Of a stretch of DNA of 36,019 nucleotides, positions 915-13,258 are shown piece by piece. The stretch's first letter is position 1; each line of letters starts with the position of its first letter. The stretch is from a virus (taxonomy: Duplodnaviria; Heunggongvirae; Uroviricota; Caudoviricetes). The notes below the pieces were generated by a model. The model was not told where the DNA came from, did no database searches, and saw only the letters and a list, made by a program, of their open reading frames with translations. The DNA is taken from the IMG/VR virus record IMGVR_UViG_2537561980_000006; one strand, 5' to 3'. The position numbers were made by a program, and so were the translations under genes.

Positions 915-1169
915 GATAAAGCTAGCATGCCAACGGTATACAGCGAGTCGCTCTTTGTGGAGGTGACGATTACCTAACAATCGGTCGATTCGTTTGATGT
1001 TATGTTTTGTTCTCGCTTTGGTTGGCAGGTTACGGCCAAGTTCGGTAAGAGTGAGAGTTTTACAGTCAAGTAATGCGTGGCAAGCCAACGTTAAGCTGTT
1101 GAGTCGTTTTAAGTGTAATTCGGGGCAGAATTGGTAAAGAGAGTCGTGTAAAATATCGAGTTCGCACAT
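915..1169 (-). pseudogene. tnp: IS10 transposase N-terminal fragment (85 codons), truncated at the IS junction
   Basis: ATG at 1169 (minus) encodes MCELDILHDSLYQFCPELHLKRLNSLTLACHALLDCK..WHASFI, then diverges where the other IS copy's end begins. Confidence 0.8.
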
Positions 1170-1230
1170 CTTGTTGTCTGATTATTGATTTTTCGCGAAA
1201 CCATTTGATCATATGACAAGATGTGTATCC
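1162..1230 (+). ncRNA. Predicted RNA-OUT antisense RNA of IS10 (position inferred from IS10 coordinates)
   Basis: Established IS10 biology: pOUT transcript starts ~nt 115 and runs toward the outside end, overlapping the transposase 5' end; mapped onto window coordinates, not independently detected. Confidence 0.4.
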
Positions 1231-1814
1231 ACCTTAACTTAATGATTTTTACCAAAATCATTAGGGGATTCATCAGTGCGGTGCCTGGTGCCTCCAGGTG
1301 ACGTTAACCAGTTAACAATTAACGCCGGATACAGAGAATCCACCCATAACACTGTTTTTGGTTTTAACTGTTCCGCGTGCGCTTAGCCGCATTCACCGCA
1401 TCACAAAATTCACTTTAAAAAGGGCGGCAGAGCAGTCACGGAGTAAAACTGATACCGCCAAACGTCACCAGAAAATTGATAACAGAGGGCGTTGCAGCGG
1501 GGTTGTCACTTAAGCGTATGGTCAACCTGACAACCAGGTGTCCTCAACGGGGAAGGAATAACCCCGCCATACTTACCGCCGCGCCATTTCGCGGAGTGCC
1601 ACAACCGGAAGCGCACGGCCGACGAAAATTTAACGACAGGCTATCTATGAACCAGCTACCTCGCCGTGCGCTTTCGCGTTATGGTCTGACTTTTCATGGA
1701 AATATCCTTTCAGTAAACTGTCAGTGCCGGATGCTCACCCGTGTCCGGCGCACGCACTCCACCTCACCCGTGGAGAACTCCTTAATTACCAACCTTAGCT
1801 TCGTTGGTTAGCTA

Positions 1815-7053: not shown

Positions 7054-7398
7054 ATGACCACTTTTACCAGAGAGCAGTTAATAACTCACGCAGAGGAGAC
7101 TATTGAAGCACAGAGACTGTGCATACCAGGCACAATCGACCATGACATCATCCGCACATATAAAATGGATATTGCTGTTTTGGAAATCGCATTGGCATCG
7201 CTGGCAGCAGAGCCAGCCGGTAAATTGCATGAATACAAACCAGTGGGATATCAGCGTCTGGTCGACGAGTTAACCATGCTGGTAAAGCAGTTAACCTGGC
7301 AACTGAGGAAAGTGAAGCCGGACTGTAAATTGCCGGATAAGGCGATGGACTACCTGAAGCGGAACGAACTGATAAGCGCGGAGGATGTTTTGCGATGA
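7054..7398 (+). CDS. Hypothetical protein (114 aa)
   Basis: ORF with AAGGAG RBS (7043-7048). Confidence 0.55.
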
Positions 7399-7481
7399 CC
7401 TGGCCTGAAGCATTCACAACGGTAGGAATTGCAATGGCGGTGGCGCTGGTGGTGTATTCGATTTGCCGCTGGGGTTGACGA
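7395..7481 (+). CDS. Possible small hydrophobic peptide (28 aa)
   Basis: ATG overlapping the upstream stop; [27 protein letters not shown]; below the ORF-track size cutoff. Confidence 0.25.
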
Positions 7482-7504
7482 AAACGGAGGCACAAAGTTA
7501 TATT
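7475..7504 (+). promoter_or_regulatory. Candidate sigma70 promoter at the AT-rich island boundary
   Basis: TTGACG (7475-7480), 18-nt spacer, TATATT (7499-7504). Confidence 0.35.
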
Positions 7505-7543: not shown

Positions 7544-7594
7544 TCGTAAAAATACCATGTTGTTAGAATGTCGTATGCGGATTCATAAGGATAA

Positions 7595-7888
7595 ATGATG
7601 AAATTCACAGGGCTACAGTCGTCAGCGTTACCTGATACTTCTGATTCAGTAAAAGAGTGTGTGAATCTCGGGCAGTGGATGCTGTTCAAATCTTATGCGC
7701 ATGAAGTAACCACAACATTTGAAGTGGTGTTTTTTCTGAAAACTGGCGATGAAATATTTGGTTTGAATGAAAGAGGGCAAATAACGTCCACCCAAATTAC
7801 TGAACATTTAAGCATCGATGAGCTTTTTTACTTTATTGATATACCAAAGCCACCATCTTTCAGTAATGCAATGCCTCCTAAATATTAA
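7595..7888 (+). CDS. Hypothetical protein (97 aa), first gene of AT-rich island operon
   Basis: ATG at 7595 after AAGGA; low GC; 40-nt gap to the next gene. Confidence 0.5.
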   Translation: MMKFTGLQSSALPDTSDSVKECVNLGQWMLFKSYAHEVTTTFEVVFFLKTGDEIFGLNERGQITSTQITEHLSIDELFYFIDIPKPPSFSNAMPPKY

Positions 7889-7928
7889 CAAAATTTTAAC
7901 TTAAAACATTCGAATCATAAGGATATGT

Positions 7929-8631
7929 ATGAGCCTTAGGTCTGAGCGTACGAAATGGGTTATGTTTTTGCCTTGTTCTAAAGAAGAAGTTGAATCGCGC
8001 CACGTTTTGGATATTGTTTTTGGCGTGCTATGTCTTGAGAAGGCCGGTATAAATCCACGAGACATATCAATATATATTGACAGCCCTAACAGGAATTTTG
8101 ATGATTTTTTTTTCATCAGCCTCGAAGTATCCTTATGCGTCAAAAGCATCAGCAGATTTCTTTAATGACTTGCGTGATAATAACTACAATAACATAGTAA
8201 TGTTTGTTACTGGTCATGGTTGCCCACAAGGACTGGATGCAAAAAATCCTATTACTCCTCATCAACTTCTCAAGGCTTTAAAAGGAGCACCTAATTTAAA
8301 CAATGCTATTGTTTATTTTGGACAGTGTTATGCAGGTACGTTCAATTTTGTTGGGGCGGGTAAAAGAAAGGATGGCGAGCCTGAGGTTGTTTTAATTGGG
8401 GCGACTAATCTTACTGAGAGTCTGAGTATAGCGACTACTGAAACGTTTCTTGATGGAGATGAATTTCCTTGGACGGCCAATATTTTTCTCCTTCATGTTT
8501 TTAAATGGATGTCAAAACCTTCTGATATAGATGGTGATGGCCGTTATACTGTAATGGATTCTTATAAGCATGCTGGTATTTTTACTAACTTTGTGAATAA
8601 AAAACAAAAACAGATATGTTTGGTGAGATAA
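7929..8631 (+). CDS. Putative clan CD (caspase-like) cysteine peptidase, reading frame interrupted at a T9 tract (8105-8113)
   Basis: Hydrophobic strand + His-Gly (NNIVMFVTGHG) and hydrophobic strand + Gln-Cys (NAIVYFGQCYAG) 37 residues apart; N-terminal strands lie in ORF 7929-8165 and the catalytic core in ORF 8077/8101-8631; losing one T fuses them. Confidence 0.45.
8105..8113. repeat. Homopolymeric T9 tract at the frame break of the caspase-like gene
   Basis: Nine consecutive T at the junction of the two overlapping ORFs. Confidence 0.9.
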
Positions 8632-8825
8632 TTAATATGCATGCAGAGTGTAATAAACTCATGGCACTGGCTTCTTCGGGGACAGGGAATTGGATAATTG
8701 ATACGACAAATGAGTTAAATTATAAAGCCAAAAAAACACAACTACAAAATTTATTGATTGCGCACCACACTCATCAAGAATGTTGGATATTAAATGCAAG
8801 ACCAGCGCAAAAAATTGAGTTTTGA
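8616..8825 (+). CDS. Hypothetical protein (62-69 aa), or frame-shifted C-terminal continuation of the caspase-like gene
   Basis: ORF in the frame of 7929; upstream frame ends at 8629-8631 just after an A6 tract (8599-8604); alternative start ATG 8637 with GGTGAG RBS. Confidence 0.35.
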   Translation: MFGEIINMHAECNKLMALASSGTGNWIIDTTNELNYKAKKTQLQNLLIAHHTHQECWILNARPAQKIEF

Positions 8826-9085
8826 CTAATCGTTATGTCAATTAATTACAATAACGACTTATCATGGTGAGCAAAAACGGTTTGCGGGAAAAGGAGAGTT
8901 AAGTAGAATTGCTGCGGGTGCTTGAGGCTATCTGCCTCGGGCATGAACACCAAAAGGCAGATAGAGAAAAGCCCCAGTTAACATTACGCGTCCTGCAAGA
9001 CGCTTAACATTAATCTGAGGCCCAATCTATGTCTCACAAATGTAGGTTAGCCTCTTACGTGCCGAAAGGCAAGGAGAAGCAGGCT

Positions 9086-9241
9086 ATGAAGCAGCAAAAG
9101 GCGATGTTAATCGCCCTGATCGTCATCTGTTTAACCGTCATAGTGACGGTACTGGTAACGAGGAAAGACCTCTGCGAGGTACGAATCCGAACCGGCCAGA
9201 CGGAGGTCGCTGTCTTCACAGCTTACGAACCTGAGGAGTAA
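9086..9241 (+). CDS. Hok/Gef-family type I toxin (51 aa)
   Basis: MKQQKAMLIALIVICLTVIVTVLVTRKDLCEVRIRTGQTEVAVFTAYEPEE: single TM helix and the conserved Hok C-terminal region; in-frame upstream extension from 9029. Confidence 0.8.
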   Translation: MKQQKAMLIALIVICLTVIVTVLVTRKDLCEVRIRTGQTEVAVFTAYEPEE

Positions 9242-9384: not shown

Positions 9385-9777
9385 ATGAAGAAACTTGTTT
9401 TAGTCGCAGGTGTAATGATTGCAACAGTAATGTTGGGAGGGTGTGCAGCAAAGGTCGATCCAGCGTTGAAAGCAGAAGCAATGAAGCCACTAACATGTAA
9501 TGATGAAAAGCAATGTGACTTTTATTGGAAACGAGCGCAATTCTGGTTGGCTAATAATTCCTCATGGAAAATTCAAACGGCGACAGACACGCTAATTTCC
9601 ACTTATAATCCCTCTCCAAATAGTCCATTCCTCGCTTATCAAGTGAGTAAAATGCCAAATGAAGATGGATCCTCAAGAATTTTCATCAAGCCTTTTTGCG
9701 ATAATATGTTTGGCTGTCAACCAAACCCCTATCAGGCAGTTGTTTCCTTTAAAAACTTCGTTAAAACAGGGCAGTAG
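9385..9777 (+). CDS. Lipoprotein (130 aa), AT-rich cargo gene
   Basis: Signal peptide with lipobox MLGG-C (Cys20); RBS GGGAG; five further Cys residues. Confidence 0.65.
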   Translation: MKKLVLVAGVMIATVMLGGCAAKVDPALKAEAMKPLTCNDEKQCDFYWKRAQFWLANNSSWKIQTATDTLISTYNPSPNSPFLAYQVSKMPNEDGSSRIFIKPFCDNMFGCQPNPYQAVVSFKNFVKTGQ

Positions 9778-12655: not shown

Positions 12656-12731
12656 GGCCCTTTAGCTCAGTGGTGAGAGCGAGCGACTCATAATCGCCAG
12701 GTCGCTGGTTCAAATCCAGCAAGGGCCACCA
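12656..12731 (+). tRNA. tRNA with CAU anticodon (Ile2-lysidine type or Met)
   Basis: Cloverleaf folded by hand: acceptor GGCCCTT/AAGGGCC, loop CUCAUAA, T-loop TTCAAAT, 3' CCA; close to E. coli ileX-type sequence as I recall it. Confidence 0.8.
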
Positions 12732-12732
12732 G

Positions 12733-12809
12733 CCGCCACTAGCTCATCAGGAAAGAGCGTCAACCCTTTAAGTTGAGTGTGCGAGGTTCGAGTCCCCGGT
12801 GGCGGTCCA
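12733..12809 (+). tRNA. tRNA with UUU anticodon (Lys-like) and unusual C at position 33
   Basis: Acceptor CCGCCAC/GTGGCGG, anticodon stem TCAAC/GTTGA, loop CCTTTAA, T-loop TTCGAGT, 3' CCA. Confidence 0.6.
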
Positions 12810-12811
12810 GT

Positions 12812-12887
<76 letters not shown>

Positions 12888-12890
12888 TAT

Positions 12891-12965
<75 letters not shown>

Positions 12966-13232: not shown

Positions 13233-13258
13233 AACCGCCTCTATCGGGCGGTTTTTTT
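13233..13258 (+). terminator. Intrinsic terminator
   Basis: AACCGCC-TCTATC-GGGCGGTT then T7. Confidence 0.6.

Follow-up and report, generated by a model that had tools for sequence, protein, structure and literature searches.

A legumain-like protease and its small partner in a Qin-like prophage: a candidate protease–effector module

Introduction

Proteases of clan CD, caspase-like or of the CHAT type, are emerging as switches of bacterial immunity. In the described systems that come closest to the one discussed here, the protease acts on a small protein encoded next to it. Pepco, a beta-rich protein of 117 amino acids encoded directly upstream of its protease, becomes a pore-forming toxin once that protease has cut it after a single conserved residue and so taken off its unstructured C-terminal tail, and EACC1 proteins, encoded upstream of caspase-like proteases, are activated by a single cut (PMC12642450). 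Legumain, of the family C13, cleaves after asparagine with an S1 pocket made of Arg44, His45, Ser216 and Asp231, and it is self-inhibited by its helical C-terminal domain (PMC4357240). We found no description of this legumain-type (C13-like) branch in bacterial immunity in the literature that we searched. Here we analyse a stretch of 36,019 nucleotides of viral DNA (IMG/VR record IMGVR_UViG_2537561980_000006; 'the window' in what follows), where an AT-rich island carries a legumain-like protease gene, split by two frameshifts, directly behind the gene of a 97-residue partner protein.

One protease gene, split by two frameshifts

The initial annotation, made from the sequence of the window, had read this island as an operon of three open reading frames (ORFs): a caspase-like protease of clan CD, flanked by a frame of 97 codons upstream and one of 62 to 69 codons downstream. 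The frames are indeed there (7595..7888, 7929..8165, 8077..8631 and 8616..8825), but the island is made of two genes. The first frame is the partner gene, and the other three are a single gene for a protease of 298 residues; the downstream frame is the C-terminal quarter of that protease, cut off by the second frameshift, because repair of both indels yields exactly WP_000058713.1. That a caspase fold would require the frames to be fused was correctly seen: the repaired protein is intact, while the unrepaired frame from 7929 ends after 78 residues, ahead of both catalytic residues. The single extra T, proposed as the sole defect, was half of the story, as a T is in excess in one homopolymer (8105-8113) and an A is missing from another (8599-8604). 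To judge from these frames, the protease of the window is inactivated as sequenced.

The two indels are the sole differences, over 7560-8860, between the window and a prophage of Escherichia coli 14EC029 that is 99.54% identical to it over 27.6 kb. Five indels in total separate the two sequences over this common length, all in homopolymers of at least seven bases, the remaining three being 1-nucleotide deletions in intergenic T-runs (at 13251, 16176 and 23470), and the longest homopolymer of the region sits in the protease gene. The pattern is consistent with slippage mutation as much as with sequencing error, and the data speak neither for nor against a role of the T8/T9 and A6/A7 runs in programmed frameshifting or in phase variation. 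The T9 allele is present in ETEC4085 as well.

A megablast search found the island in 12 of 5,426 complete E. coli genomes. Seven of the twelve have an uninterrupted gene of 897 nucleotides, encoding WP_000058713.1, WP_000058714.1 or WP_000058712.1; in the other five the protease gene is disrupted, three times by frameshifts and twice by independent IS1 insertions. The 97-codon gene is intact in all twelve, as it is in the window. An operon made up of small ORFs, three or four in number, in which the protease is split by nature, would agree with the frames listed in the window, and yet this reading is so improbable as to be practically dismissed: the two homopolymer indels are all that sets the seven uninterrupted genes apart from the window, and more than 200 homologues are single proteins of about 300 residues. 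Separate genes are ruled out by the alignments with intact copies and by the repair that restores WP_000058713.1.

Some further observations bear on the two genes. The IS1A and IS1B insertions, in genomes STEC409 and strain 0-4, lie at different positions of the protease gene, and the genomes of ETEC4085 and ETEC1747 each have two places that match the island. An identical sequence of 11 nucleotides, TCATAAGGATA, which includes the Shine-Dalgarno motif AAGGA, stands 5′ of both genes (7583..7593 and 7915..7925, plus strand).

A divergent, legumain-like protease of clan CD

Single-sequence searches with the repaired protease were not significant, and this is why profiles and a structural model were needed. 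The Pfam family Peptidase_C13 (PF01650) came out below its threshold (12.8 bits against a cutoff of 22.8, E 0.088, residues 82-138), NCBIfam, which has no model for it, gave chance-level scores only (E 0.21), PADLOC had no match, nothing was significant among Protein Data Bank (PDB) sequences, and PHROGs returned nothing useful. More than 220 homologues of about 296-300 residues are found in enterobacteria, Pseudomonas, Burkholderia, Xanthomonas, Vibrio and beyond. Within an alignment of 43 homologues, 19 individually match PF01650 at E < 1, the best at 2.8e-6. The family profile, run against PDB sequences, matched only legumains, asparaginyl endopeptidases (AEPs) and peptide asparaginyl ligases (PALs), with a best E of 9e-4, in two collinear stretches: the N-terminal strand with its R-H..D motif falls on the YRHQAD of legumain, and the strands that end in His-Gly and Cys fall on H148 and C189. 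This alignment was rechecked against human legumain, after its sequence had been checked with the PDB; when the family profile was compared with a single legumain sequence, hhalign aligned the first 43 columns only.

Structure tells the same story. An AlphaFold2 model of the protein (predicted local distance difference test 92.3, predicted template modelling score 0.88) displays, over about residues 1-200, an alpha/beta domain like that of caspases, with a central sheet that superposes on caspase and legumain; the DxDGDG loop lies in a helix-loop-helix, and the chain goes on with a long hairpin of helices (208-280) and ends in a short strand. The 38 top PDB matches found by Foldseek all belong to family C13 (best E 7.8e-8), caspases ranking only after them; the best match is PIGK (7wld_K), and several PALs are among the closest structural relatives. 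The initial annotation had put forward profile hidden Markov model (HMM) searches and structure prediction as a check of its proposal, and both now lead to clan CD and, within it, to C13. Membership in the clan is well supported; the caspase-like label did not stand, for the closest relatives are legumain and the other C13 enzymes, not C14. The protein is legumain-like rather than caspase-like, but too divergent for the curated C13 threshold.

A scan of 1.84 billion representative sequences with HMMER returned 271 clusters, almost all of them about 290-320 residues long with a full-length match. The best 150 representatives are mostly of that size, with fragments of about 100-280 residues and a few proteins of up to 354; no domain fusion was seen among these 150. 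A signal peptide is not evident on reading the N-terminal sequence, so that the protease is probably cytosolic.

The catalytic blocks pointed out at the outset, NNIVMFVTGHG and NAIVYFGQCYAG, are present as described, and their His and Cys, 37 residues apart, are H96 and C133 of the intact protein. Invariant in the 43-homologue alignment are R24, H25 and D28, G95-H96-G97, G131-Q132-C133, D199-x-D201-G-D203 ... D210, and a C-terminal stretch Q283-E-(C)-W-x-L-N ... P-x-Q. When the comparison is extended to copies from at least seven phyla, H96, G97, Q132, C133, D28, S164, N184 and the acidic residues of the loop are still essentially invariant, R24 is retained in all lineages but one, and H25 is His, Phe or Tyr in distant copies; the blocks G95-H96-G97 and G131-Q132-C133 are unchanged in every distant copy of full length. 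This looks like the conservation pattern of an active enzyme under purifying selection. R24 and H25 are aligned with R44 and H45 of legumain, residues of the S1 pocket on helix alpha-1 that go with Asn/Asp specificity. The hmmsearch alignment stops short of the region of Ser216 and Asp231, for which S164 and N184 are candidate counterparts by position only. At the place of Asn42, the third catalytic residue of legumain, the family has Glu or Asp (E22 here).

The loop deserves a comment of its own. D199, D201, G202, D203 and D210 are invariant, and the model folds the segment as a helix-loop-helix. The DxDGDGxxTxxD loop strictly matches the EF-hand pattern PROSITE PS00018 in 16 of the 43 homologues, and in 41 of them when position 8 is relaxed. 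Metacaspases and clostripain, other proteases, are known to have a Ca2+ switch, and it is a reasonable supposition, but just that, that the EF-hand-type loop would play this role here.

The partner protein and its asparagine tail

The 97-residue partner, WP_236293809.1, matches phrog_30138, of unknown function, in PHROGs (E 1.2e-62); it has no family in Pfam, NCBIfam or PADLOC and no fold match in the PDB. When 30 diverse homologues were compared with Pfam, none matched at E < 0.1, with chance-level hits only, in a copy of Pfam where the presence of Pepco and EACC1 models was unchecked. Besides G26, L30 and G61, the most conserved feature of the protein is a C-terminal segment, D-[IL]-P-x-P-x-S-L-S-N. 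Of 84 non-redundant copies, 58 have its final Asn exactly in the aligned column, and in most of the others with the segment an Asn lies no more than a residue or two away. The residues that follow are variable and disordered, 1-14 in number and mostly 3-8. An E. coli protein of 126 residues, P0125, shares 89% identity with the partner over the first ~70 residues of the latter and has in addition a match to Pfam DUF7167; it seems to be a form of the partner that arose by recombination or fusion.

We propose the partner as the substrate of the protease because a conserved Asn opens its floppy tail, next to a protease of an Asn-specific family that keeps the S1 Arg. The association of the two genes and the conserved Asn tail are what is new in this work.

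A quite different use of the same Asn comes to mind when considering the enzymes that the structural comparison brought forward. Plant PALs and PIGK, a subunit of the glycosylphosphatidylinositol transamidase, both belong to C13. An asparaginyl transpeptidase would form a thioester at the Asn of the partner and then ligate the resulting protein of about 91 residues to a nucleophile of some target, thus tagging it. That PIGK is the best Foldseek match, with several PALs close by, and that the Asn is followed by a short tail resembling a leaving group, both speak for it. Yet ligase and hydrolase are indistinguishable here, no third gene is conserved that might encode an acceptor, and the partner has neither a ubiquitin-like nor any other known fold, so that we regard this proposal as a long shot.

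A mobile two-gene cassette

We retrieved 42 loci from other species, 39 of them with upstream DNA, and called partner homologues by iterated HMM. A homologue of about 90-110 residues is encoded directly upstream of the protease, on the same strand, in 36 of these 39 loci (E values from 1e-17 to 1e-36 within that set), which bears out the inclusion of the 97-codon frame in the same unit. The loci belong to Proteobacteria, Spirochaetes, Cyanobacteria, Bacteroidota, Clostridia, Bdellovibrionota and Myxococcota. All-against-all clustering of the neighbouring ORFs brought up no third conserved gene. The pair is a self-contained two-gene unit.

In the window the pair stands directly upstream of hok/sok, the hok neighbour noted in the initial annotation being confirmed by the hokD ORF and by an Rfam match to sok. 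The Qin prophage of E. coli K-12 has relB-relE-hokD at this very place, in identical orientation, as had been stated there. Three E. coli alleles of the pair occupy this relBE slot next to hok; one with 72% identity lies in a lambdoid prophage, where a Hok gene again comes after the pair. Such a positional swap shows a cargo slot and says nothing of a common mechanism. Elsewhere, in Yersinia enterocolitica (CP107099.1, 6686..7891 of the retrieved locus L071), an unrelated, myovirus-like prophage carries the pair as a moron amid its genes for tail and baseplate; the pair lies within an integrase/resolvase island in Burkholderia cepacia, adjoins PLDc_2 and SIR2_2 genes in Pseudomonas fragi and SymE in Leclercia, and sits between ordinary transport genes in Vibrio. 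The cassette is horizontally mobile.

What the pair may do

Among the 123 nearest large neighbours at 33 distant loci, strong PADLOC matches include GajA, PD-T4-6, Drt8 and other DRTs, PbeA, mad6 and a PrimPol/TOTE primase, along with resolvases and integrases. This suggests a role in conflict or defence. A function in abortive infection or in toxin processing, raised when the island was noticed, is plausible. We tentatively favour the reading of the pair as a protease-plus-small-effector conflict module, of the defence or abortive-infection type, while giving it somewhat less than an even chance. The protease would be switched on by some trigger, for which a rise in Ca2+, perceived through the DxDGDG loop, is a possible candidate; it would then cut the partner after its conserved Asn91, and loss of the short tail would activate or release it. 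A substrate role for the partner, cleavage at Asn91, Ca2+ as the trigger and defence as the outcome are each what we infer.

Several observations weigh against this scenario. The link between partner and protease is one of their genes, and contact between the two proteins is supposed. H25 is replaced by Phe in many lineages, Ser216 and Asp231 of legumain are unmapped by sequence, and Asn42 has given way to Glu or Asp. The Asn tail is missing from an alphaproteobacterial subgroup of 80-residue partners and from a few other lineages, the proteases of which keep R24 and the catalytic dyad. The partner matches no Pepco, Trypco, EACC1 or other Pfam family, the protease has no fused sensor in the best 150 representatives, unlike the known modules, and PADLOC has no model for either protein. 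As for the neighbourhoods, many of the same 123 genes are housekeeping genes, in a tally made without an enrichment baseline. Finally, neither gene, as DNA or as protein, was found in 50,697 GenBank phage records or in 72,556 PLSDB plasmids. Literature searches returned nothing on these accessions, on Peptidase_C13 together with defence, or on bacterial legumain together with toxin-antitoxin systems, and DefensePredictor makes no mention of the pair.

These housekeeping neighbours could be taken at face value. The pair would then process a host or phage protein in the course of lysogenic conversion or of ordinary physiology, its link with mobile elements being incidental, and this would also fit with the silence of PADLOC and with our failure to find a published defence phenotype. 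The spread of the pair is patchy, however, as seen in its rarity among complete E. coli genomes and in the 271 clusters of the large scan; its island is AT-rich; it recurs as a moron in prophages of unrelated phage types; and it is found in integrase/resolvase islands and beside defence genes. A role outside conflict seems to us rather improbable.

The main rival is an arrangement of the toxin-antitoxin kind, where the protease would be a toxin arresting growth and the partner a pseudo-substrate inhibitor plugging the S1 pocket with its Asn tail. It has precedent in legumain, which is blocked by substrate-like segments that bind Arg44 and Ser216 (compare cystatin E/M and the legumain prodomain; PMC4357240). 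The pair occupies the exact relBE slot of K-12 Qin, the small gene first and in the same orientation, next to hok, and it has SymE as a neighbour in Leclercia. Moreover, the protease gene is broken in five of twelve genomes and also in the window, whereas every copy of the small gene is intact, as would be expected if the protease were costly. This bias toward the protease gene, however, is not significant given its threefold length and its homopolymers (P about 0.06-0.13), searches of Pfam, NCBIfam and the PDB gave the small protein no DNA-binding or known antitoxin domain, and the relBE swap, being that of a cargo slot, leaves position as the sole match to type II systems. We therefore consider it unlikely, though worth keeping in mind before all the other alternatives to the protease–effector module.

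Setting in the prophage

The window is a Qin-like lambdoid prophage, with DicF, a dicB/ydf region, nin-like genes, RusA, Q, four tRNA genes, lysis genes, a terminase, an HK97-type head and a tail. The sharp fall in GC content first noted over the island is confirmed by the composition profile, with 0.33-0.39 over about 7550-8900 against 0.46-0.53 in the flanks. The features discussed here are collected in Table 1. In a scan of the region for promoters and terminators, the counts of sites were not above shuffled expectation.

Table 1. Position of the island, of its two genes and of the features that they carry or adjoin, numbered from the first nucleotide of the window
Feature	Coordinates	Strand	Remarks
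AT-rich island	7560..8830		Between nin-like genes and hok/sok of the Qin-like lambdoid prophage; composition profile and annotation of the 14EC029 prophage
Promoter-like site TTGACG-18-TATATT	7475..7504	+	Upstream of the small gene; 10/12 consensus; weak evidence
Partner gene, 97 residues, phrog_30138	7595..7888	+	Intact; beta-rich domain and disordered C-terminal tail
Asn91 codon of the partner	7865..7867	+	In ...D-I-P-x-P-x-S-[LF]-S-N, then 6-residue tail AMPPKY; putative cleavage site
Protease gene, clan CD, legumain-like	7929..8825	+	Disrupted; intact 897-nucleotide orthologues, indel repair, structure and fold searches
First frameshift, T9 homopolymer	8105..8113	+	T8 in intact copies; alignments
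Catalytic His codon, H96 (G-H-G)	8215..8217	+	Invariant; aligned with legumain His148
Catalytic Cys codon, C133 (G-Q-C)	8326..8328	+	Invariant; aligned with legumain Cys189
EF-hand-type loop DxDxDG, DIDGDGRYTVMD	8524..8559	+	Between helices 185-195 and 208-249; putative Ca2+ site
Second frameshift, A6 homopolymer	8599..8604	+	A7 in intact copies; alignments
hok/sok type I toxin-antitoxin locus	8916..9241	+	Outside the module; marks the slot
sok	8916..9091		Rfam, 120 bits
hokD ORF	9086..9241	+	hokD annotated in orthologous loci

The neighbourhood holds some other features. Upstream of the pair, a hydrophobic ORF of 27 codons (7395..7478, plus strand), annotated neither in the window nor in the orthologous RefSeq loci, has an ATG that overlaps the stop of the gene at 7054..7398 (ATGA) and a Shine-Dalgarno sequence GGAGGA at 7380-7385; it may encode a small membrane peptide. 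Right after hok, an ORF of 130 codons (9385..9777, plus strand), annotated as hypothetical (WP_000737636.1), has an N-terminus that resembles those of lipoproteins, MKKLVLVAGVMIATVMLGGC; this, too, may be a moron. Further away, Rfam recognizes RNA-OUT over the full length of its model (98.8 bits; 1162..1231, plus strand) about 190 nucleotides from the match to the small RNA DicF (76.7 bits; 1422..1473, minus strand). This is unexpected beside DicF in a Qin-like prophage, because RNA-OUT is normally the antisense RNA of IS10. The four tRNA genes (12656..12965, plus strand), with a CAT anticodon (tRNA-Ile in RefSeq), Lys-TTT, Thr-TGT and Gly-TCC, lie just 3′ of the Q antiterminator gene.

Implications

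For annotation, the lesson is immediate: three 'hypothetical' ORFs of this prophage are one frameshifted gene. For function, the family is compact – 271 clusters, nearly all of proteins of about 300 residues, strictly paired, and plausibly equipped with a Ca2+ switch of their own instead of a fused sensor – and it comes with a clear prediction that is cheap to test, a cut after a single conserved Asn. Should this prove true, it would be a new protease–effector module with a new effector fold, as well as a bacterial cytosolic counterpart of legumain, relevant to the evolution of C13 and possibly useful as an Asn-specific protease or ligase tool. Were the transpeptidase proposal true instead, prophages and defence islands would carry a novel, ATP-independent way to tag proteins. 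The less radical version may be a Ca2+-gated, Asn-specific protease–effector system of abortive infection, with an effector of new fold.

Comparison with known systems

The likeness with relBE of K-12 Qin is one of place: two genes, the smaller first, upstream of hokD in the same position and orientation. The two pairs have no sequence or structural relation, RelE being an mRNA interferase and the enzyme discussed here a cysteine protease. Other bacterial systems built on clan CD proteases are also distant. The partner is far too small for a gasdermin, and unrelated to the gasdermins that go with caspase-like proteases; no TIR, SAVED, CRISPR or cyclase gene is conserved near the pair, in contrast to type IV Thoeris and SAVED-CHAT/Craspase; and the protease resembles C13 more than it does C14 or CHAT.

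With the C13 enzymes of PF01650 – legumain/AEP, PALs and PIGK – the protease has in common the order of the dyad, His-Gly then Cys, on equivalent strands. The S1 motif YRHQAD of legumain is aligned with its N-terminal strand and Arg-His..Asp motif, and in both the peptidase domain is extended at its C-terminal end by helices. Identity with these enzymes, nevertheless, is 12-18% only. The protease has Glu or Asp where legumain has Asn42, Gln rather than Ala before the Cys, and an EF-hand-type loop that we did not notice in legumain; its C-terminal part is a two-helix hairpin with a strand bearing HQECWILN, whereas that of legumain is the death-domain-like LSAM. Legumains reside in lysosomes, in vacuoles or in the endoplasmic reticulum, and this compartmentalization differs from the probably cytosolic location of the protease here; the constant pairing with a dedicated small protein is a further difference.

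It is in Pepco and EACC1 modules that such a pairing is met. There too, a non-enzymatic protein of about 100 residues is encoded directly upstream of a protease, and the pairing is conserved across taxa; in Pepco, likewise, the site of the cut is marked by a conserved residue with an unstructured C-terminal tail behind it, although this tail, of about 2 kDa, is longer than that of the partner, mostly of 3-8 residues. The proteases are trypsin-like or caspase/CHAT-like in those modules and C13-like here, and a sensor (Avs/STAND, FGE or others) is fused or paired with them, in contrast to our stand-alone protease of about 300 residues with no conserved third gene. Because the partner has no Pfam match, the protease is C13-like and no sensor is fused to it, the pair does not belong to the Pepco or EACC1 families. 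Most likely it would nonetheless work as they do, a trigger leading to a cut after Asn91 and the cut to an active partner.

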